DNA of 64,000 nucleotides from a virus. The stretch spans positions 1-64,000 of the IMG/VR virus record IMGVR_UViG_3300005264_000008. The stretch is one strand, 5' to 3'. Shown piece after piece: positions 3,768 through 40,139 of the stretch. The notes beneath the pieces are model-generated. The model was not told the DNA's origin, did not search any database, and saw only the letters and a list, made by a program, of their open reading frames with translations. Position 1 is the stretch's first letter. Every line of letters begins with the position of its first letter. A program made the position numbers and the translations under genes.

Positions 3768-6257
3768 TTAAATTCCATTTACTTTCATTTTATTCATTTT
3801 TAATCCCAAATATCTACCAACTTCTCTATCGTTAATATAAACACCTCCACCTTTGTTTAGAGTAGAAACTAAATTATCAACACTAGAAATTAATTTATCC
3901 ATTTTACTATCTTTTGATTCATCGCTTTTGCCACTTCCACCTGTCATAATAGGCTTTAATTTCGTTGTTAGCGTTGTTAATGTTGCTAGTATAGGTATCA
4001 TAGGTGTGATTGCCAATAAAGACCCTGCAAACGATAAAATACCCACTCCCATCAATGCAAACCCTTCACCTATCGAAGATAAACTTCCGCTTATAGAAGA
4101 AAGTTGCATTATGAGTGGTATGAATGCTGTAATTGGATTTACTATCATTTGCAATCCAAGTCCTAACATAGAAAGTGCACCACCCAAAGCAAGGAAACCA
4201 AGTACACCAGCTCCAAATAATATTGCACCTGGTCCAGTTAATAACGCACCCAATCCAAACATTGCAAGTGTTAGCCCTACAAGTGCAGTACCAGCAATAC
4301 CAAGTGTTTTCCAATCAATATCAGTAAATTGTTGCAATGCATAACCTAATGGTATTAAAGAAGCACTCATAATTGCCAATGCAATTGAACCCTTTAGTAT
4401 ACCACCACCCATTTTACTAATTACTTTCATAATTCCTGCCATTGCAAGCATAGAACCCATACCCATTAAGGCAGATTCAAATGGAACATCAGCAAATTGT
4501 TTTAATGCTATTGCTAACAATGGTATTGTGACAATGATTACACCGATTGCAAGACTAAATTTCGCAAGGGCTTTCAAATCTAACTTTTTCCAGCCATTAA
4601 TCCAATTGACAATTGGATTTCCTTTCATTTTTGAAATGCCATCTTTTCCGATTGCACCTGTTGTTTTTGATAAATCTTTACCTTTTGATGCTGATGATAA
4701 TAATTTAGAAGATGTACCACCTGTTTCTGTTGCACTTTGAATTGCTTTTCCTTTAAGTAATCCAGAAATCCATTGACCTACTCCTCTTACCATTTTACCC
4801 ATTCCTTTGAATATACCTGGCATTAGTGATTTCATTGATGATAATGCCATAACACTAGACATTAAAAGTTCTTTTTGTTCCCAAGCTCCTTTAACCATTC
4901 CCTGTACTTTAATTACATTATCTCCTAATGCACTACCATATACATCATGAATTTTACCTAATTTTTCTTGCTGTGAAATCATTGTTTGCATTTGGTCAGT
5001 TGACATTCCAAGTGACTCTGCTACTTTTTGTCGTTGTATCACATCCCATTCATTCCATTCCGAAATAGTGAATTGATTATTCAATATTTCTTTCATCATA
5101 CCTGCATGGTCACGTGCTAATGCTAATTCACGTGCTTTATTAAAATTCAATTGCTTTCCTGTTAATACACTTGCACTCATTTCTGCTTCAATACTACTAT
5201 CAATATCAAGTAAACTACTAGAAATTTGGTCAATTGTTCCAAGTGATAATCCTAATTGTTGAGCCGATACGGCCGCATTTATAATATTGTTAGTTCCAGC
5301 TTTAGAATATTTAGCGAAATATTCAGTATTTTGTGCAACTTCCCCCATCGTTTTACCAGTACTCACACCACCTGCTTTCGCAATATTTTCATATATTTTA
5401 AAACTATCTTCAGCAGATTGATTTGTTAGTGGTTGTATATCGGAGAACATTTTATACAATTTAGCACCATCATTTACTGCTAAACCATAATAAGTAGACA
5501 TTTTTCCAACTTGTACAATTGCTTCATCAGTAACATCGTTAATATCTTTAAATTCATCATATAATGCAGATGCTGATTCACCAGCTTTACCTAATCCAAC
5601 ACCAAATGCTAAACCTTTCACAGATGCAATTGACATGTTTTTTGCTAAAATCATACTATCACTGCCACTTAACCCCATTTCGACTCTAGTATCAAGCATA
5701 CTTTGTGCTAATTCACCACCACTTTTTGCCAATGATGCCATGAATACTCCACCTGCAACTTTTGGATTTTTTGCCATTGTAGTTAATGTTTTAGTAAACC
5801 CATCCACCCTTTTTCCAATGTTCATCAACTTTTCACGTTGTTCTTCTAAAATGTCATTTTCTTCATTTAAAATATCGATTTGAGTTTTACCTTTATCATT
5901 CACAAGAGTTTTAGAATCAATCATATCTTGTAGCATTTGCAATTGAATTGTCATTGCTTTTTGTTGATTCTCATTCATATCATCACCTAATAGTTTCATT
6001 GCTTTTGTAACTGAGAACTTTTTTAATTCTAATGTGTTACCGTCTTTTAGATTTTGCAATTGGTCTTTGACTATATCTGCTAATCCCATATTAAGAGATG
6101 CACGACCTTTATCAATATTAAATAATACCTTTGATTGTTTTGTTAATTTCACAGCCATATCAGTAACATCAGCAAAATGATTCTGCTGAATATTACTCAT
6201 TTCTTTAATTTGATTTTGTAAGTCTAATCCAAAATCACGAATGTCATCGAATTCCAT
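3768..6257 (-). CDS. Tail tape measure protein
   Basis: 829 aa, Ala/Gly/Leu-rich and helical; LLDIDSSIEAEMSASVLTGKQLNFNKARELAL motif; hydrophobic C-terminal third; ends VYINDREVG. Confidence 0.8.
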   Translation of the reverse strand: MEFDDIRDFGLDLQNQIKEMSNIQQNHFADVTDMAVKLTKQSKVLFNIDKGRASLNMGLADIVKDQLQNLKDGNTLELKKFSVTKAMKLLGDDMNENQQKAMTIQLQMLQDMIDSKTLVNDKGKTQIDILNEENDILEEQREKLMNIGKRVDGFTKTLTTMAKNPKVAGGVFMASLAKSGGELAQSMLDTRVEMGLSGSDSMILAKNMSIASVKGLAFGVGLGKAGESASALYDEFKDINDVTDEAIVQVGKMSTYYGLAVNDGAKLYKMFSDIQPLTNQSAEDSFKIYENIAKAGGVSTGKTMGEVAQNTEYFAKYSKAGTNNIINAAVSAQQLGLSLGTIDQISSSLLDIDSSIEAEMSASVLTGKQLNFNKARELALARDHAGMMKEILNNQFTISEWNEWDVIQRQKVAESLGMSTDQMQTMISQQEKLGKIHDVYGSALGDNVIKVQGMVKGAWEQKELLMSSVMALSSMKSLMPGIFKGMGKMVRGVGQWISGLLKGKAIQSATETGGTSSKLLSSASKGKDLSKTTGAIGKDGISKMKGNPIVNWINGWKKLDLKALAKFSLAIGVIIVTIPLLAIALKQFADVPFESALMGMGSMLAMAGIMKVISKMGGGILKGSIALAIMSASLIPLGYALQQFTDIDWKTLGIAGTALVGLTLAMFGLGALLTGPGAILFGAGVLGFLALGGALSMLGLGLQMIVNPITAFIPLIMQLSSISGSLSSIGEGFALMGVGILSFAGSLLAITPMIPILATLTTLTTKLKPIMTGGSGKSDESKDSKMDKLISSVDNLVSTLNKGGGVYINDREVGRYLGLKMNKMKVNGI

Positions 6258-29062: not shown

Positions 29063-29397
29063 ATGGAAAGTATTGATGAAAAATCACAAAATTATGCTTA
29101 TAAAAAGGTTAGAGAATCGTTTCCAACATTGCGTGGAAATGCATTTCAATTAATTAAGTTAATCGTAAAATCAGCATATATACAAGGTGCTGAATTTACA
29201 AGTAGTGAGAATATTGGGAAATCTGCAAAAGAATATGCAAACAATAGAGTCTCAGAAAATTTACTAAATATCCAGAAGCTACGAAAAATTTATTATCTCT
29301 AATGATGCAACAGGCATTTATTCAAGCATGTGATGATAATGGGAAAAATGTCAATGTCGAAAGAATTGACATAGCGTTTCAATTATGTAGTGTCTAA
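29063..29397 (+). pseudogene. Frameshifted two-repeat protein, probably a cassette gene
   Basis: The second repeat (LMMQQAFIQA, compare LIVKSAYIQG) lies in another frame after about 29262; the restored stop sits next to a degenerate attC-like site. Confidence 0.55.
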
Positions 29398-29402
29398 ATT
29401 AA

Positions 29403-29434
29403 CCATGACGAATACGTGTTTGACACTGTTATCT
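29403..29434 (+). mobile_element. Degenerate, shortened attC-like site
   Basis: Shares ACGAATACGTGTTTG and CTGTTAT with the intact site at 29744-29814. Confidence 0.5.
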
Positions 29435-29481
29435 ACTTTATTTTTAACATTTAAATTATTAACAATATAAAAAGTAATAGT

Positions 29482-29739
29482 ATGGAATATAAAACCGTAG
29501 AAAATTGGACAAGTGGTAGTGGTAATATATTAGTCACAAAACAGGAAGTGAAATTAGAAGCTGGTGACCAATATATAGGAGAAGGGTTGTCTGGAAGAAA
29601 TATATTTTCATGGTCTAAAAATCAAAAAAAAGAATATCCACAAAAAAAAGCTATTAAAGTAATTGCTCGTAGTTTTAATTTAGTTTGGTGTTTTTCTGGT
29701 AACAATAACATTTCAGATTTACCAGTAGTAGATATTTAG
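29482..29739 (+). CDS. Cassette-borne hypothetical protein
   Basis: 85 aa, bounded by GTTATC (29428) and GATAAC (29745-29750). Confidence 0.6.
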   Translation: MEYKTVENWTSGSGNILVTKQEVKLEAGDQYIGEGLSGRNIFSWSKNQKKEYPQKKAIKVIARSFNLVWCFSGNNNISDLPVVDI

Positions 29740-29743
29740 TTGC

Positions 29744-29814
29744 TGATAACGAATACGTGTTTGTGATGTTTTGGGAGTTTTTAGAACCAAATAACATCAA
29801 AAACGCTGTTATAG
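29744..29814 (+). mobile_element. attC-like recombination site
   Basis: TGATAAC...CGTGTTTGTGATGTT-TTGG / CCAA-AT-AACATCAAAAACG...GTTATAG imperfect hairpin, 71 nt. Confidence 0.65.
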
Positions 29815-29875
29815 TTACCTTATTGAAACATTTCAGCATCGAATAAATGAAATATTAATCTTAAAATATTGAATT

Positions 29876-30073
29876 ATGAATGGAAGAAAGTTATATAGAG
29901 AATATACACAAAGTAAGGGCAAAGAAGCAAAAGAGTTTATCAAGATTGAAGAAGACTGGTATAATTTAGACATGTTAATAACAAAAGATAATAAGGGTCA
30001 TGAAGAAAAAACAAGTATTAATTATAAGGATTTAGTTAATTGGATAATCCGAAATAGGCCTGATTACTCATAA
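29876..30073 (+). CDS. Cassette-borne hypothetical protein
   Basis: 65 aa; the stop codon lies inside TCATAAC, as is typical of cassette R'' sites. Confidence 0.55.
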   Translation: MNGRKLYREYTQSKGKEAKEFIKIEEDWYNLDMLITKDNKGHEEKTSINYKDLVNWIIRNRPDYS

Positions 30074-30162
30074 CAAAACGCTTGATGTATCTTTCATATA
30101 ATAATTAAATTATAAGATGTTAAAAATGTATGTAATATTTAATTTTCATATTAGATTTATAT

Positions 30163-30194
30163 AAAAATCCATGTTTAATAAACATGGATTTTTT
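30163..30194. terminator. Intrinsic terminator
   Basis: AAAAATCCATGTTT-AAT-AAACATGGATTTTT. Confidence 0.7.
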
Positions 30195-30241
30195 AATTTA
30201 TTTAATTTATATAATAATAACAAAAAAATAATAACAAAGAA

Positions 30242-32210: not shown

Positions 32211-33054
32211 ATGCGTAAACAAGTATCATATTCACAATACATGCAATATGTCAATTGTAAAAAACAATATGAACTAACATACATAGAAGGGCTGTCGATT
32301 AGGCAACCCTCTATTTATACTTTAATTGGAACATCTATTCATGAAACTATTCAACAGTATTATGACGAACAATTTCCAATTAAATACAATTACAGTGATA
32401 TATTATTTTCATATATTGAAAAAAACATTAAAATTCAATCTGATAAATTTCAAGAAACATTTGTCAATTCAACAGAGTTGAATGATTTTTTCGTACAAAG
32501 TCAAGTGGTATTACAAAAATTCGTTAGCAACCGAACTGAACTTATTAGCCCCGAACTGCAATATATTAAATCAGAATACGAATTAAAATGTGATTTATCA
32601 TTTCTTGGTGCAGATGCTCGGTTTAGGTATATTAATATAATTGGATTCATCGACATGTTATTCAAAACAATTGATGGTAAATACATAATATTTGATATAA
32701 AATCTAGTAATAAAGGATGGACTATTATTGATAAGAAAAACAAATATAAATTATTCCAACTAATATTATATAAAAAATTACTATCACTAATATCAAATAT
32801 TGATGAAAATGATATTGAAATTAAATATTTGTTTTTAGAATATGGGACTGGTGAAGTTAATGTATTCACACCAAATTTGTCCAAAATAAATGAAAACGAA
32901 TTATTCAATGAATTCAGAGATTTCATATTTGATGTGTTTGATGAAAACGGTATGTATATACAAAGATTTTAATAATACTGATAATAGTGACAATTGTTTT
33001 TTCTGCGAATATAAAGGGACACCATACTGTAATAAATTTAAATTGACTATATGA
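32211..33054 (+). CDS. PD-(D/E)XK RecB/Cas4-like exonuclease, frameshifted near 32961
   Basis: SYSQ..C, GTSIHE, GFID, DIKS, QLILY. The C-terminal CFFC...YC lies in the +1 frame and ends at a TGA overlapping the next ATG. Confidence 0.75.
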
Positions 33055-33485: not shown

Positions 33486-33516
33486 TAGTTATAAAAAAAG
33501 TTGTAGTTTAAATTAG

Positions 33517-33670
33517 CTATAACGGATAACTTCTTGATTTTCATTTACAAATACTAACAATTTAATAAATTAAAAAACATCATCCAAATTCAATTAAATA
33601 TTGGTAAATGAGTCTTGTCTTCTTATTAAATAGCAGAAAAAAATAAATGACTTCAAACGCAATGTTAGCA
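33517..33670 (+). mobile_element. attC-like site
   Basis: CTATAAC-GG...TTGA..TCATTTA / TAAATGA..TCAA...AT-GTTAGCA. Confidence 0.65.
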
Positions 33671-33704
33671 ACTTTATTTATTAATAACTTTAAAATTAAA
33701 AAAA

Positions 33705-34010
33705 ATGGATATTCAAATTTTTATCGATGAACAAGTCGAAATGTTAAACAATGATTTTGGTACAGACCAAATTCAATGGAATATATACAGACTATTTTTC
33801 AAAGAATATATGCCAGACTTACCCCTTAATACAATAATTTCGAGATGTATGGAAGTTTATGCACAAATTATTAAAATCCATTCGGCTCAACCTTTATTTA
33901 AAGCTCTTGAAAAAGTTCAATTGCAAGTTGGTCAAATCGAACATAACTGGGATTATCAACAGAAAGAATATATGCCGTTTGTTATAAAAGCACTTACAGC
34001 TAACTTTTAA
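33705..34010 (+). CDS. Cassette-borne hypothetical protein
   Basis: Bounded by GTTAGCAAC (33664-33672) and its exact reverse complement GTTGCTAAC (34013-34021). Confidence 0.7.
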   Translation: MDIQIFIDEQVEMLNNDFGTDQIQWNIYRLFFKEYMPDLPLNTIISRCMEVYAQIIKIHSAQPLFKALEKVQLQVGQIEHNWDYQQKEYMPFVIKALTANF

Positions 34011-34014
34011 TTGT

Positions 34015-34146
34015 TGCTAACGGCTAACTTAATTGAACTGTTGCGACTTAACGCACAACGTAAATTAAAAGTAGTAAGTCCAAAAATAACACAGATGTAA
34101 ATTAACAGCATAATGTAAGCCTGTGAAATTCAAGCAAATGTTATGT
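34015..34146 (+). mobile_element. attC-like site
   Basis: TGCTAAC-GG...TTGAA...CTTA / TAAG...TTCAA...AT-GTTATGT; ends resemble the site at 33517. Confidence 0.7.
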
Positions 34147-34163
34147 GCTTAAATTTAAAAATT

Positions 34164-34721
34164 ATGATTAAAGTATTAAATTTATACGCAGGTATTGGAG
34201 GTAATCGAAAGTTTTGGAATAACTGTAATATCACTGCAGTAGAAAATGATAACCAAATTGCAGATAAATATAAACAGCAATTTCCAAATGATAAAATAAT
34301 TATTGATGACGCTCATCAATTTTTATTGGAAAATTATAAAGAGTTTGATTTTATTTGGTCAAGCCCCCCATGCCCAACTCATTCTCGAACTAATTATTTT
34401 CTAAATCCAAAAGGAATAATTCGATACCCGGATATGAAATTATGGCAAGAAATAATCTTTTTATCTGCATTTTTTAAAGGTTATTTCGTTGTTGAAAATG
34501 TAATAAGCTATTATAAACCTATTCTTAATCCGCAACAAATAGGAAGACATTATTTTTGGTCAAACTTCAATATCCCAAAAATAAAACAACCAACAAATGA
34601 CATTGGTAGAATGAATGGGAAAAATCAACCAGCATGTAAAAAACATAAAACTGAAAGAAATGCTGTCAATTCTGAATTAGGTTTACACATTTTTAATCAA
34701 TTTTTGGAAGTTAAAAAATAA
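34164..34721 (+). CDS. Short C5-cytosine DNA methyltransferase, cassette-borne
   Basis: LNLYAGIGG (motif I), SPPC (IV), ENV (VI); bounded by GTTATGTGC (34140-34148) and GCACATAAC (34754-34762). Confidence 0.8.
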   Translation: MIKVLNLYAGIGGNRKFWNNCNITAVENDNQIADKYKQQFPNDKIIIDDAHQFLLENYKEFDFIWSSPPCPTHSRTNYFLNPKGIIRYPDMKLWQEIIFLSAFFKGYFVVENVISYYKPILNPQQIGRHYFWSNFNIPKIKQPTNDIGRMNGKNQPACKKHKTERNAVNSELGLHIFNQFLEVKK

Positions 34722-34755
34722 AACAATCCAGCTATGCTGTCGCTATTTTAGTTGC

Positions 34756-34823
34756 ACATAACGAAAATGTATTTAAACTGAAAAATCTTTTTTGATTTTT
34801 TTGTTTTAAATACAATGTTAGGA
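34756..34823 (+). mobile_element. attC-like site
   Basis: ACATAAC-GAAAA-TGTATTTAAAC..AAAAATC / GATTTTT..GTTTTAAATACA-AT-GTTAGGA, 68 nt. Confidence 0.7.
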
Positions 34824-34909
34824 GCTTTATTTTTAGGCTTTTATCATTGTATCGGAAAATAAATAAAAGAAACTTGAAAAAAAAATTTTTTTATTCAAAA
34901 TAAGTTTTG

Positions 34910-34917
34910 TATCTTTG
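34910..34917 (+). promoter_or_regulatory. Bacteroidota-type -7 promoter box
   Basis: TATCTTTG upstream of ORF 34944. Confidence 0.55.
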
Positions 34918-34943
34918 TCATACTAAAAAGCAATAAAGCTGAG

Positions 34944-35540
34944 GTGAAAAAGGAAATTATGAGAAAGGAAATAAAATATAAAAATTATACAATCCTTTTA
35001 ATTAAAAATAAATACGGAAGCGGTCAAGTTCATTTTGATTATAATGGAACTAATTCAGCTACAAATTTTGGATTAAAAACTGCTTTTGAATTGTTTTCTT
35101 TTATTCACAATGAAGTTTTGAAATTTGCAAAGGAAAATCAAATTAATAGATTTTATACACAAGGAGCTACAGATGATGAAATAATAATAGCTCAAATTAA
35201 GGATATAAAAGATAATAATTTATTTGAATATCCTGAATATTTTTATTCAAATTATATTGATTTTGAATATTTAGGAAATGGGAAATATGAAGGATATGAT
35301 AAAGATGAAGATGAATTAATTACTTTAGATTGTGAAAGTAATATGTTTGATTTTGAGAATATGATAATGAATACGTTTAATGCTTATGAAAAAGTAGGAT
35401 TTGAATTATCAAACATCAAAACGAAAGCTGACCAAAGATTAAAATTATATGCTCGAATGATTTTAAAATATGATGGAGAAATAGAAGAGTTAAACATTCA
35501 AAATAATTATTTAAGTTTTTACATTAATAAAAAAAAATAA
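34944..35540 (+). CDS. Hypothetical protein
   Basis: 198-aa ORF. Confidence 0.6.
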   Translation: MKKEIMRKEIKYKNYTILLIKNKYGSGQVHFDYNGTNSATNFGLKTAFELFSFIHNEVLKFAKENQINRFYTQGATDDEIIIAQIKDIKDNNLFEYPEYFYSNYIDFEYLGNGKYEGYDKDEDELITLDCESNMFDFENMIMNTFNAYEKVGFELSNIKTKADQRLKLYARMILKYDGEIEELNIQNNYLSFYINKKK

Positions 35541-36114: not shown

Positions 36115-36185
36115 CCTACTGTAGTGTAATGGTAGCATCCATGTTTGTGGAACATGTAGTCCCAGTTCGAACCTGGTCAGTAGGA
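36115..36185 (+). tRNA. tRNA-His (GTG)
   Basis: Acceptor CCTACTG/CAGTAGG; anticodon arm CATGT-TTGTGGA-ACATG; T loop TTCGAAC; no encoded CCA. Confidence 0.85.
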
Positions 36186-36198
36186 CAAATATAATTAA

Positions 36199-36288
36199 GG
36201 AAGATTGACAGAGTTGGTAATGTGCCTGATTGCTAATCAGAGTCTTCGGTTAATAGCTGATGCGTAGGTTCGAATCCTACATCTTCCG
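36199..36288 (+). tRNA. tRNA-Ser (GCT)
   Basis: Acceptor GGAAGAT/ATCTTCC, G73; anticodon loop TTGCTAA; long variable arm; GTAGG-TTCGAAT-CCTAC. Confidence 0.92.
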
Positions 36289-36290
36289 CA

Positions 36291-36398: not shown

Positions 36399-39300
36399 AT
36401 GAAAAAATATTCGCACTCCACTGTACATGATGAAACAATGAAATATTTTGATAATGATGTATTAGCAACCGATGTATGGATGAAGAAATACGCATTGAAA
36501 GATTCCGATGATAATTATTACGAATTAACACCTGATGACATGCATCATCGAATAGCAAGTGAACTTGCACGTGTTGAAAAAAAATATCCTAACCCTATGG
36601 GCGAAGATGAAATATTTGAATTATTAAAAGACTTTAAATATGTCATACCTGCTGGTTCTAATTTATTTGGTATTGGCAATGATAAATATTTAACAAGTCT
36701 TAGTAATTGCTTTTATATACATCATGATAACAATGATAGTTATGGAGGGATAATGAAATTAGATGAAGAATTAGTTCACCTTTTCAAAAGAAGATGTGTC
36801 GAAGAAAATTCACATGTGATGACTTTAAATAATGGATTATTAAGAATAAAAAATATTACTAAAGGTGATATGGTGTTATCTTATAATACTAAAACCCAAA
36901 AATCCGAATATAAAAAGGTAATTGATAAATTTGATACTTTTGTTGATAAAGATGATAGAATAATAATAAAACTATCAAATGGAAGCCAATTAAAAACATC
37001 AAAAAAACATCCAGTTTTGACATTTTCTGAAATTGGAGAATATGTTTATAAAAATGCAGGAGATATACAAAAAGGTGATATTTGTATATCATCTTTGACT
37101 AAAAATAATTATAATGTTTATAATTTTGATAAAAAATTATCTGATATTGCATGGTTCACAGGACATCATCTGGGAGATGGTACATGTGGTAAAAATAAGT
37201 TACGTTTTAGAATATTAGGGGATAATGAAAAATGTATTGCAGAGTATGCATCTATTTTGAATGACATAACAGGCTCAACTGCAAAATATGGGTTATCTAA
37301 AAAGAAAGGTTATTTAGTTGATGTATGGGACTATACTAATAATAAAAAATCTTTAAACGATGTATTAGTTAGATATTTGGATAACCAGCGTGGAAAAAAA
37401 ACATATTCAATGTTTACTCCAAATTTTATAAAAAATAATAATTTATGGATACCTTTCATAGCAGGTTTAATAGATGCAGATGGAACAGTAACAGCAGATG
37501 GTAGATTATCGTTAACACTAACATCAAAAACAATGATAGATGAAATAAATTCTTATCTGTTATATAATGGTATCAGTTGTCATGTGAGTGTTAAGATTGA
37601 CAAACGCAATTCAAAATGGAAACCGCTTTATACATTACGATTTCATAAAGATGTTGAATTTTATTCTAATATATTAAAATATCTTATTCATGATAAAAAA
37701 AGACAACGTCTTATTGAAAATAAAATAACGGTTCATTCGTATAAAAGATTTATAACTGAAGAAGAACATAATGAAATGTTGAATAATTATAGTTCTAAAG
37801 GATTTTATAAATATAATAGAAACAACAAAGCACCAAAAGAATTTAATATTAAACGGAAACAATTGCAAAGTGCTATTGATACTGTGAAAGGTAATAATGG
37901 ATTAGGTATAAGTGCTTTAAATATACTGTTAAAACATGATATTATAAATAATGATAAGTATAATGAGATTAATCAACGTGTTTTTGTTACGAATGTAAGT
38001 ATAGATAATGATAGTTCTAAATATATTGATATTGAAGTCGATGGTAATCATAATTTTTATGCAGGTAATTTTGGCGGAATCGTAACTCATAATTGTGGAG
38101 TCGGAATTGATGTGTCATTTTTAAGACCCAAAAATTCTAAAGTTAATAATGCGGCCTTAACAACAACTGGTGCAGTGAGTTTTATGAATAGATTTAGTCA
38201 TACAACTGAAGAAGTTTCTCTTTTAGGTCGTAGGGCCGCACTAATGATTACAATGGATGTTAGTCATCCTGAAATTGAAGATTTTATTTCAATAAAACAA
38301 GATTTAACAAAAGTAACAGGGGCAAATGTATCAATTAAAATAACAGATGATTTTATGTTAGCTGTTAAAGAAAATAATGAATTTGAATTGAAATTTCAAA
38401 TGGCAGATAAGTCTTGGATAAGAAAAAAGGTAAACGCTAAACAGATATGGGACAAATTTATAAATGCAAGCTGGAATTCAGCCGAACCTGGATTGTTATA
38501 TTGGGATAAAATAAAAAGAGAATCACCTTCCGATGGTTACGAAGGGTTTGATTTACAGGGGGTTAATCCATGTTCTGAATTAACGCTATCAGATTCAGAG
38601 AGTTGTAGATTAACATCTATTAATTTAACTGCTTTTGTTAAAAATAGTTTCACTGAAAAAAGTATGTTTGATTTTGAACAATTCAAAAATGTAGCGATTA
38701 AAGCTCAGAGATTGATGGACGATATAACTGATTTAGAAATAGAAAAAATAAATTCGATTTTACAAAAAATTGAACAAGACCCTGAGAATGCCGATGTGAA
38801 ATTTAGAGAAATTTCCTTATGGAAAAAAATATTAGATAAAGCAACTGATGGTAGACGTTCAGGATTAGGTATAACTGGATTGGCTGACATGTTAGCAATG
38901 CTCGGATATACATATGGAACACACGAAGCAACTTCATTTTCAGAAAAAATATTTATAGATTTAGCAAAATCGTCATATGAATCTTCAATAAACATGGCTA
39001 AAGAAAGAGGAGCTTTTAAAAATTGGTCAATTGATAAAGATAAAAAAAGTGATTTTATAAATAGATTATTATATGAAACCATAGACTCAGACGTTTTTGA
39101 ATTATATAAAAAATATGGTCGTAGAAATATCGCAAATTTAACAATTGCACCAAATGGGTCATTGAGTTTATTGAGTAAAACATCATCAGGTGTTGAACCT
39201 GTTTTCATGGTTAAACATAAAAGACGAAGAAGAGCAACAGAAACAGATTCAGTTGATTTCATTGATGATGTTGGTAATAAATGGAAAGAATATCTTGTAT

Positions 39301-40139
39301 TTCATCCTAAGTTCGAAGAATGGTTTAATAAAAATAATACTAATAAAAAACTAAAAGATTTAACAGAAAGTGAAATAGATGATATTATAACAAAATCTCC
39401 ATACTATAATGCAACAGCACAAACGATAGATTACATAGAAAAAATTAGGATGCAAGGAATCATTAATAAATGGATAGACCATAGCATTTCAATGACTGTT
39501 AATTTACCAAATAATATAACCAAAAAACAAGTGTCAGATTTATATATGAAAGGTTGGGAATATGGTTTAAAAGGAATGACTATTTATAGAGATGGTTCAC
39601 GTTCGGGTGTATTAGTTGCAACTGATTCTAAAAAAGAAGTAACACCAGATAGACCAAAAGAAATACCATGTGATATACATTATATTCAAGCAAATAAGAT
39701 AAAATATTATGTTATAGTTGGTTTAGTTAATGACAAACCATATGAAATATTTGCATTTGAAAAGAAACATATTTCAATACCGCAAATTAGAAAAGATGGT
39801 AAATTAATAAAAGTTAAATCAGGTATGTATAATTTAAAATATAATGGTACTGAAATTGAAAATATTGCTCAACATTTTCAATCACCACAAGAAGATGGTT
39901 TTACTCGAATGGTATCATTATTATTAAGACGTGGAAATTCAGTAGCAGATATAACAGAACAAATTGATAAATCATATAGTGCTATATCAGGATTTTATAA
40001 AGCAATTTCACGAGTATTACGTAAAAATTATACTTCAGATGGTAAAATAGACGAAAAATGTCCGCAATGTAATGCTAATTTAGTAATGAAAGAAGGATGT
40101 AAATCATGTCCTGCATGTGGATTTGAATTTTGTGGTTAA
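36399..40139 (+). CDS. nrdJ: Class II (AdoCbl-dependent) ribonucleotide reductase with intein
   Basis: SLSNCF, NPCSE, GLGITGLAD, TIAPNGS, GMTIYRDGSR; C-terminal TSCPD-like region and Zn ribbon. Confidence 0.9.
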   Translation: MKKYSHSTVHDETMKYFDNDVLATDVWMKKYALKDSDDNYYELTPDDMHHRIASELARVEKKYPNPMGEDEIFELLKDFKYVIPAGSNLFGIGNDKYLTSLSNCFYIHHDNNDSYGGIMKLDEELVHLFKRRCVEENSHVMTLNNGLLRIKNITKGDMVLSYNTKTQKSEYKKVIDKFDTFVDKDDRIIIKLSNGSQLKTSKKHPVLTFSEIGEYVYKNAGDIQKGDICISSLTKNNYNVYNFDKKLSDIAWFTGHHLGDGTCGKNKLRFRILGDNEKCIAEYASILNDITGSTAKYGLSKKKGYLVDVWDYTNNKKSLNDVLVRYLDNQRGKKTYSMFTPNFIKNNNLWIPFIAGLIDADGTVTADGRLSLTLTSKTMIDEINSYLLYNGISCHVSVKIDKRNSKWKPLYTLRFHKDVEFYSNILKYLIHDKKRQRLIENKITVHSYKRFITEEEHNEMLNNYSSKGFYKYNRNNKAPKEFNIKRKQLQSAIDTVKGNNGLGISALNILLKHDIINNDKYNEINQRVFVTNVSIDNDSSKYIDIEVDGNHNFYAGNFGGIVTHNCGVGIDVSFLRPKNSKVNNAALTTTGAVSFMNRFSHTTEEVSLLGRRAALMITMDVSHPEIEDFISIKQDLTKVTGANVSIKITDDFMLAVKENNEFELKFQMADKSWIRKKVNAKQIWDKFINASWNSAEPGLLYWDKIKRESPSDGYEGFDLQGVNPCSELTLSDSESCRLTSINLTAFVKNSFTEKSMFDFEQFKNVAIKAQRLMDDITDLEIEKINSILQKIEQDPENADVKFREISLWKKILDKATDGRRSGLGITGLADMLAMLGYTYGTHEATSFSEKIFIDLAKSSYESSINMAKERGAFKNWSIDKDKKSDFINRLLYETIDSDVFELYKKYGRRNIANLTIAPNGSLSLLSKTSSGVEPVFMVKHKRRRRATETDSVDFIDDVGNKWKEYLVFHPKFEEWFNKNNTNKKLKDLTESEIDDIITKSPYYNATAQTIDYIEKIRMQGIINKWIDHSISMTVNLPNNITKKQVSDLYMKGWEYGLKGMTIYRDGSRSGVLVATDSKKEVTPDRPKEIPCDIHYIQANKIKYYVIVGLVNDKPYEIFAFEKKHISIPQIRKDGKLIKVKSGMYNLKYNGTEIENIAQHFQSPQEDGFTRMVSLLLRRGNSVADITEQIDKSYSAISGFYKAISRVLRKNYTSDGKIDEKCPQCNANLVMKEGCKSCPACGFEFCG
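36795..38093 (+). mobile_element. Intein with LAGLIDADG homing endonuclease (433 aa)
   Basis: Starts CVEENS after FKRR; TSKKHP block B; FTGHHLGDG and FIAGLIDADG; ends IVTHN before C(+1)GVGID. Confidence 0.92.

Follow-up and report, generated by a model that had tools for sequence, protein, structure and literature searches.

A short, partly decayed array of two gene cassettes in a viral genome probably belongs to an integron-like system of Flavobacteriia and their phages

We characterized a segment at 33.5 to 34.8 kb of the IMG/VR virus record IMGVR_UViG_3300005264_000008, and our findings make it likely that this segment represents a short array of two gene cassettes, partly decayed and lacking a recombinase, belonging to an integron-like system specific to Flavobacteriia/Bacteroidota and their phages. 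The window, here and below, is the first 64 kb of this 82,228-bp record, which has a GC content of 26%. An original prediction, made from the window sequence alone, had proposed that the phage captures accessory genes as cassettes through an IntI-type enzyme acting at G|TT; the units indeed have the design of mobile cassettes in an integron-like system, but the exchange point, the IntI-type enzyme, and the assignment of hairpins to genes were not supported as proposed. Assignment of the units to the mobile-cassette type is supported by their covarying end boxes, their strand-asymmetric folded sites, a content of mostly one gene per unit, and a methyltransferase cargo. As read from the sequence, the array runs in the order S0, 101-amino-acid (aa) gene, S1, C5-methyltransferase-like gene, S2; its parts, together with a promoter box behind it and the best site of a second array, are as follows.

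33515..33672, plus strand: site S0, decayed, with an AAC-type box AGCTATAAC at 33515-33523 and a GTTA-type box GTTAGCAAC at 33664-33672
33705..34010, plus strand: cassette gene 1, a 101-aa open reading frame (ORF) without a Pfam family
34013..34148, plus strand: site S1, decayed, with an AAC-type box GTTGCTAAC at 34013-34021 and a GTTA-type box GTTATGTGC at 34140-34148
34164..34721, plus strand: cassette gene 2, C5 cytosine DNA methyltransferase-like and short (185 aa), with a match to PF00145
34754..34825, plus strand: site S2, well formed, with boxes GCACATAAC (34754-34762) and GTTAGGAGC (34817-34825)
34910..34917, plus strand: promoter box TATCTTTG of the TAnnTTTG type, ahead of a 193/198-aa ORF
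29742..29816, plus strand: site A2 of the second array, composed of GCTGATAAC, the spacer GAATAC, the stem GTGTTTGTGATGTT, and GTTATAGTT

The four 9-mers that the original prediction had singled out sit where it placed them and are exact reverse complements of each other, with GTTAGCAAC/GTTGCTAAC flanking the 101-aa ORF and GTTATGTGC/GCACATAAC flanking the C5-methyltransferase, so that both units show 9/9 complementarity (33664-33672 with 34013-34021 and 34140-34148 with 34754-34762). At 26% GC a bare 9-nt inverted match is not unusual, occurring in 11% of mismatched ORF flank pairs, and a search for the longest inverted match around ORFs was unable to detect a signal in such AT-rich DNA. Because bare matches are this common, we anchored the test on the conserved cores (GTTA before the gene, TAAC after it), next to which all five variable bases would be complementary by chance with a probability of 0.0054. 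We then examined ten array regions, drawn from this record and from five further sequences of phages or viruses. Of 36 AAC-type boxes at ORF ends, 13 had an exact 4-nt (N4) partner on the other side of the unit, where 2000 permutations gave 1.6 on average and never more than 6, whereas the two ends of the same hairpin paired in only 1 of 36 cases against 0.7 under the null, i.e., with no enrichment. Since pairing across units lies far above the permutations and pairing within a hairpin is at chance, the predicted offset complementarity is real. The last box of the array, GTTAGGAGC, has no partner downstream, where no ..TCCTAAC box follows the next ORFs, and S2 therefore closes the array on its right side. 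The two outer half-sites, AGCTATAAC and GTTAGGAGC, show no match to each other and have no partners.

The sites themselves form a recognizable family. On one strand they read TTG-N4-TAAC-G, an unpaired spacer of 5 to 7 nt, a stem of at least 8 bp whose two arms enclose a variable loop, a spacer of 1 to 3 nt, and TGTTA-N4-C; nine well-formed sites share this architecture, comprising S2 and A2 in the window, C2 and D1 in the record, and five from other contigs. An RNAalifold analysis of the nine aligned sites recovered the TAAC/GTTA box together with an 8-bp stem and compensatory changes at 7 pairs. A single-nucleotide bulge is present in 6 of the 9, always on the 3' arm (folds read by eye), and an additional conserved TTTTA(A/G)TTG lies upstream of the AAC box. 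A covariance model built from these nine sites (R1) scores the given strand far above the opposite one; for S2 the values are 68 bits on the plus strand and 14 bits on the minus strand. The order of elements in S2 is GCACATAAC, the 5-nt spacer GAAAA, a stem of 10 to 11 bp with a single bulged T on its 3' arm, a 2-nt spacer, and GTTAGGAGC, and A2 scores 57 bits with R1 and has a fold z score of -3.26.

The three sites of the 33.5-34.8 kb array had all been described as imperfect hairpins, a description that applies to 34754-34825 (-10.2 kcal/mol, z = -3.15) and fails for 33520-33668 (z = -0.10) and 34013-34148 (z = -0.05). Both of the latter retain the boxes only. The 5' arm of S0, TAACGGATAACTT, resembles S1; no stem is detectable, and a 3' arm similar to that of site L18a on contig L018 precedes the box GTTAGCAAC. 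R1 gives only 13 bits at 33600-33672 in S0 and does not detect S1, whose interior holds what look like remnants of L arms (TTAATTGAA / TTCAAGCAA). Positions 34080-34111 within S1 differ by about 8 letters in Logan contigs of the likely source run, and contigs over the flanking genes match the window exactly; this interval appears to be a local hypervariable or exchanged segment.

The array is not isolated in the record, which holds at least four array regions, at 29.3-30.2, 33.5-34.8, 66.6-68.5, and 71.2-72.1 kb, the last of them on the minus strand. The same site family and the same offset pairing are present in the viral contigs L014 and L015 and in the metagenome contig L018, with mostly single-gene units and one two-ORF unit in L014, and in the viral contig L180 two cassettes (offset pairs of 10/10 and 9/9) immediately precede a gene for a 267-aa Xer-like protein. 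The module AACGAATACGTGTTTG of A2 recurs at record position 67245 and in L014 and L015; a search with this 16-mer matched 17 viral stretches, mostly by chance, with only L014 and L015 real, and among the first 120 bacterial matches none was site-like. Within the second cluster (29303-30241 of the window) a truncated site copy lies at 29401-29436, and the end-box matches are partial only (GTTATC../..GATAAC; GTTATAGTT versus ACTCATAAC). On the plus strand of the array at 66.6-68.6 kb of the record (L147 2619-4525), GTTAGGCAT/GTGCCTAAC flank a 69-aa ORF. The minus-strand array at 71.2-72.1 kb (L147 7226-8070) has a site with a 16-bp stem at 71930-72070, and there GTTAAAGTT/AACCTTAAC flank a 191-aa ORF without a Pfam match.

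A published case allows the exchange point to be examined. Qi et al. 2023 (Front Microbiol 14:1091391, PMC9892861) described virulent phages that carry clusters of attC sites but no integron-integrase (CALINs); one of them is Polaribacter phage P12002L, which has methyltransferase cassettes. Two attC sites "in divergent directions" are called there in P12002L, one of which was recombined by IntI1. We found that the minus strand of P12002L carries the same site family with the same offset pairing around four DNA-modification genes, with 8 to 9 of 9 bases matching in each pair of end boxes.

Minus strand: methyltransferase gp35, end boxes GTTAGGCAC/GTGCCTAAC
Minus strand: Mom-like gene, end boxes GTTACCCAT/GTGGGTAAC
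Minus strand: methyltransferase gp54, end boxes GTTACCTAT/GTAGGTAAC
Minus strand: methyltransferase gp38, end boxes GTTGTATGT/GCATACAAC

Going by the primer table of the same article (PMC9892861), P12002L_attC1 corresponds to the well-formed hairpin of this family. It is the only such hairpin with an experimental result, and it gave no recombinants with IntI1. P12002L_attC2, on which IntI1 was active, reads as the reverse strand of a sequence that ends an array; the crossover there, G|TTAGGC, is complementary to GCCTAA|C. One sequence of about 65 nt (AACGGATAAAACAAGTTTTACC...) stands behind the last AAC box of both P12002L arrays (L152 29165-29248 and 37199-37305), its reverse strand is P12002L_attC2, and it may be the array-end (attI-like) site of this system.

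The genomes of P12002L and P12002S are 99% identical elsewhere, and their cassette region differs by insertions and replacements of whole units. Of the five breakpoints between them, four fall at ...AAC|G(T) in the box behind a gene, the fifth falls 11 to 14 nt further into the 5' arm of the hairpin, and none of the five falls at a GTTA box. In the clearest case, an insertion in P12002S starts after GCAGGTAACGT and ends with GTTGCTAACGT, which is followed by the hairpin that follows GCAGGTAAC in P12002L; these limits show that the inserted unit consists of hairpin, GTTA box, gene, and AAC box. The window offers a parallel, in that the 101-aa unit recurs in L018 (88% protein identity) between two different, unrelated hairpins, with homology extending from about 16 nt before GTTAGCAAC to the AAC box GTTGCTAACG. 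Together, the breakpoints at the AAC box, the end of the L018 homology, and the side of the bulge argue that the coding strand is the active strand and that crossover would occur at TAA|C, which corresponds to G|TT on the opposite strand, and they indicate that a hairpin probably belongs to the gene downstream of it. The proposal that exchange takes place at the G|TT of the GTTA box was thus not borne out, and if exchange at the AAC box holds, the earlier assignment of hairpins to units is shifted by one unit.

Cellulophaga phage phi12:1 (L154) has a site of this family (..GGTTTAACG.. stem ..TTGTTATGCATC) ahead of its methyltransferase gp6, parts of which are about 90% identical to gp36 of P12002L; the homology is a mosaic inside the gene, which rules out reading the shared methyltransferase as a clean cassette transfer.

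What enzyme could act on these sites? As the original prediction had noted, the window encodes no integrase, and no PF00589 domain was found anywhere in the 82,228-bp record, in the contigs L014 and L015, or in P12002L, whose genome is complete; a protein comparison of the record with P12002L returned only methyltransferases in common and no joint recombinase candidate. The picture changes in bacterial chromosomes, where a site-pattern search recovered clear family members in Flavobacteriales (e.g., genome G401, with 12 matches versus 2 in the control). All five Flavobacteriales loci that we fetched hold site arrays with offset pairing, and in 5 of 5 the genes run against the polarity of the sites, on the other strand, which is the classical gene-then-site order. 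A tyrosine recombinase is encoded 0.4 to 11 kb from the sites in six genomes (G329, G401, G335, G377, G285, and G218), which is far closer than chance given about six such genes per 3- to 4-Mb genome. The recombinases of G329 (382 aa) and G401 (383 aa) share 54% identity. All three array-linked recombinases that we scanned had NF040815 (XerA / integron integrase) as their best family, at 214 to 231 bits; against the IntI model TIGR02249 they scored about 200 bits, below the cutoff of 265, and matched in two stretches. The 267-aa gene product of the viral contig L180 is a relative of these enzymes. A Xer-like recombinase next to an array is therefore a feature of six bacterial genomes and L180, and since the record lacks one, the window holds an orphan array of the system. 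Two of the array-linked recombinases (L176 12608-13756 and L177 4330-5481) have an extra N-terminal region of about 100 residues ahead of the SAM-like and catalytic domains, which is missing from the phage form of 267 aa (L180) and from a shorter form of 280 aa (L175 6006-6845). The R1 model had no matches in 151 Flavobacteriales genomes, a result that is uninformative, as R1 misses nearly all confirmed bacterial sites.

We propose that units of this system would pass through a circular form in which head and tail boxes pair, for which the expected pattern is an N4 by the head GTTA complementary to the N4 by the tail TAAC. Strand exchange would occur on the folded coding strand at TAA|C, and each hairpin would form a unit with the gene that follows it, opposite to the order in bacterial cassettes, giving units of approximately 33523-34020 and 34021-34761. 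As the enzyme we propose a Xer-like tyrosine recombinase that the host would provide in trans, unless it is encoded in a stretch of the phage genome beyond the record (CheckV puts the completeness of the 82,228-bp record at only 39%). Its mode of action might resemble that of IntI on attC or of XerCD on folded CTX-phage DNA, and a host enzyme would act in trans on single-stranded phage DNA. Decay of their own hairpins, S0 and S1, has probably left the two window cassettes immobile, as fixed relics of earlier insertions. The sites of the other arrays in the record, like S2, are still well formed. The likely function of the array is the stocking and exchange of accessory or anti-restriction genes, such as orphan methyltransferases.

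Several observations weigh against this reading. S0 and S1 fold no better than shuffled sequence, which leaves two of the three local sites resting on their boxes. When joined ends were refolded, the methyltransferase closed into a better site with S2 than with S1. Travel of a hairpin with its downstream gene predicts full homology between the hairpins upstream of the 101-aa unit in the window and in L018, but these are homologous only in their last 16 to 25 nt. In the P12002L/S comparison, one unit (hairpin X, GTTACCTGG, methyltransferase, GTTGCTAAC) has ends that are not complementary. Logan contigs compared with the window showed no clean excision or circle joint at the predicted junctions, though contig-only data speak neither way. 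Lastly, the tie between the Xer-like recombinase and the sites comes from genomic proximity in bacteria and in one viral contig, and it suggests a functional link.

Three other explanations were weighed against this background. If the segment were a classical integron cassette array, with true attC sites that a host IntI recombines at the G|TT of the GTTA box and with each hairpin belonging to the preceding ORF, one would expect the AAC/GTT cores, offset complementarity, and R-L-L-R layout that are found here; some boxes equal the canonical GCCTAAC/GTTAGGC, and the interior of S2 joined to TTATGTGC closes into a textbook attC-like fold. The two attC sites called in P12002L, one of them recombined by IntI1 (PMC9892861), point the same way. 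We nevertheless regard this explanation as unlikely. Natural breakpoints fall at the other (AAC) box, so that the classical arrangement, in which a gene precedes its attC and exchange occurs at the G|TT of the gene-distal box, is not what we observe; according to the same results, it was the reverse strand of the array end that IntI1 recombined and the well-formed attC1 that gave no recombinants. The outer AAC/GTT boxes and inner L-box stem of an attC are present in S2, A2, C2, D1, and the five sites from other contigs, but S0 and S1 do not fold, and the four variable bases (e.g., TTGC, CACA, or CCGA) are unconstrained rather than following RYYYAAC/GTTRRRY, with spacers of 5 to 7 versus 1 to 3 nt. 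No IntI was found in the record or in P12002L, and no IntI-level match was recovered in 401 sampled Flavobacteriales genomes, a search made without a positive control; published surveys have found almost no integrons in Bacteroidetes. With the recombinases that adjoin the bacterial arrays also falling below the IntI cutoff, classical IntI is unlikely to be the agent here.

A rather improbable alternative, in our estimation, is that the sites are regulatory intergenic modules, each a terminator hairpin with a promoter, of the kind seen in T4-type phages, shuffled by homologous or microhomology recombination without a dedicated recombinase. The region of S2 with its host-type promoter is conserved with L014 before unrelated ORFs, T runs occur inside the hairpins, the phage records lack a recombinase, and one of the five P12002L/S breakpoints lies 11 to 14 nt inside a conserved 5' arm, as homology-driven exchange would give. 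Such exchange leaves unexplained the head-to-tail complementarity of the N4 bases, the strand-specific bulge and spacer asymmetry, and the fact that bacterial chromosomes carry these sites together with one orthologous recombinase. We give still less credence to a passive fossil, i.e., a piece of a host array gained by illegitimate recombination, at whose sites no exchange ever took place in the phage. The decay of S0 and S1, the mismatched outer half-sites, and the lack of a recombinase in the record are in keeping with that idea, but the record has at least four separate arrays, composition and promoters are phage-like, the orientation of genes relative to sites is reversed compared to bacterial arrays in every phage contig examined, and the near-identical P12002L and P12002S differ by whole units. 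Readings as an HUH/IS200-type element or a dif module seem unlikely, as each unit has one hairpin and not two and no 11-6-11 site was recognized.

The two cassette genes and their surroundings provide further context. A protein identical to the 101-aa product is recorded from a 235,805-bp contig, which probably represents the full genome. Cassette gene 2 matches PF00145 over profile positions 1-111 of 324 (E = 1.1e-10), has 43 to 49% identity to methyltransferases of Vibrio, Gordonia, and Flavobacterium phages, and has an alternative ATG at 34143, within the GTTA box. Behind the array, S2, its GTTA box, the promoter box TATCTTTG, and the leader AAAAGCAATAAAGCTGA are about 70% conserved between 34754-34957 of the window and the reverse strand of L014 at 5200-5450, behind site L14b. 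The 193-aa ORF behind S2 and the 141-aa ORF behind L14b are unrelated even though their upstream regions are homologous, which implies separate histories for the upstream module and the coding part. Directly downstream of the array are genes for tRNA-His and tRNA-Ser (36115-36289), and an Rfam scan of the window region matched only tRNAs; by eye only, intergenic DNA on the minus strand at 80.6-81.6 kb of the record resembles a tRNA gene cluster. Genes of the record include a GroEL-like chaperonin, a ribonucleotide reductase, several DNA methyltransferases, and tRNAs, and the 1,246-aa ribonucleotide reductase ORF (36399-40139) has an apparent intein-like insert from about ...SNCFYIHHD to ...IVTHNCGVG, again by eye only. 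The flank protein at 32211-32969 had no relatives in IMG/VR.

The nearest relatives of the record's GroEL are GroELs of Flavobacterium myophages, at 42% identity, and the contigs with GroEL relatives at approximately 40% identity (L148-L151) were without strong sites. The TAnnTTTG boxes, which we take to be the Bacteroidota-type -7 promoter box, their promoter function being presumed from what is established for Bacteroidota promoters, also point to a Bacteroidota host. One sequencing run, from a marine-sediment metagenome, contains most of the stretch (0.97 of the sampled words) and is probably the source sample; no other run contained most of it. Read comparison used Logan contigs only, at 85% likeness and with many low-complexity joints.

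Phage-borne attC clusters are already published, and the kind is known. In the literature searched, we did not find this site family, its reversed polarity in phages, its inactivity with IntI1, or the link to a Xer-like recombinase in Flavobacteriales. To our knowledge, the prevailing view ties integrons essentially to Proteobacteria and to IntI, and sees phages as rare and passive attC carriers. Our results point to a parallel system in marine Flavobacteriia and their virulent phages, in which the sites follow a consensus of their own, the recombinase is Xer-like, gene polarity is reversed in phages, and the cargo includes DNA-modification genes. A broader proposal, which we advance tentatively and consider somewhat less probable than not, is that flavobacterial phages and their hosts share one cassette-exchange network, in which a Xer-like recombinase without an IntI signature would act on folded single strands, phage cassettes would have evolved the opposite gene polarity, with an upstream hairpin and a promoter of their own, and recombinase-less lytic phages would use the host enzyme in the course of infection to swap antidefense genes such as methyltransferases. 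If this is true, it would constitute a second, independently organized "integron" lineage outside the IntI family. Confirmation of the recombinase activity would explain how accessory genes are exchanged unit by unit in integrase-less lytic phages, would widen the range of single-strand hairpin recombination, and would provide a handle for mining phage antidefense genes; the window itself adds one more partly decayed orphan array.

Among known systems, the CALINs of virulent phages (PMC9892861) are the closest, sharing with the array described here a virulent-type phage, co-oriented small genes between attC-like sites, the absence of an integrase nearby, and methyltransferase cargo, and including in P12002L the very site family of the window. 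The longer arrays, offset pairing, reversed gene polarity, arrays on host chromosomes, and Xer-like recombinase set the present system apart and are not mentioned in the sections of that article consulted. Sedentary chromosomal integrons with IntI and attI, such as those with the Vibrio cholerae repeats, likewise have folded single-strand sites with AAC/GTT boxes, an unpaired spacer, and an L stem with an extrahelical base; their cassette ends, too, pair only after circularization, and the bacterial versions of the present system also form long arrays by a tyrosine recombinase. They differ in that the recombinase here lacks an IntI-level match (TIGR02249, 200 bits in two stretches), the boxes here are G-N4-TAAC and GTTA-N4-C with an extra conserved TTTTARTTG and strongly unequal spacers, and the phage genes here face the other way, with the hairpin upstream of the gene.

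CTX-phi attP(+) is a Xer-dependent element on which XerCD acts on folded single-stranded DNA, and Ghaly and colleagues reportedly described XerA-like integron integrases in Archaea in 2022. With such elements the present system would share a Xer-family enzyme acting on a hairpin of phage or cassette DNA, in agreement with NF040815 as the best model; it appears to differ in having cassette arrays rather than a single integrating genome, and no dif-like 11-6-11 duplex site was recognized here. The promoter-stem-loop (PeSL) regulatory cassettes of T4-type phages, said to have been described by Arbiol and colleagues in 2010, are alike in being repeated intergenic stem-loop and promoter modules beside small accessory genes in plastic regions of large lytic phages, with shuffling of modules. 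Shuffling of PeSL modules is driven by homology, however, without unit-specific complementary end boxes or an associated site-specific recombinase, whereas here the N4 boxes are complementary and the hairpin interiors that flank the 101-aa unit are unrelated.

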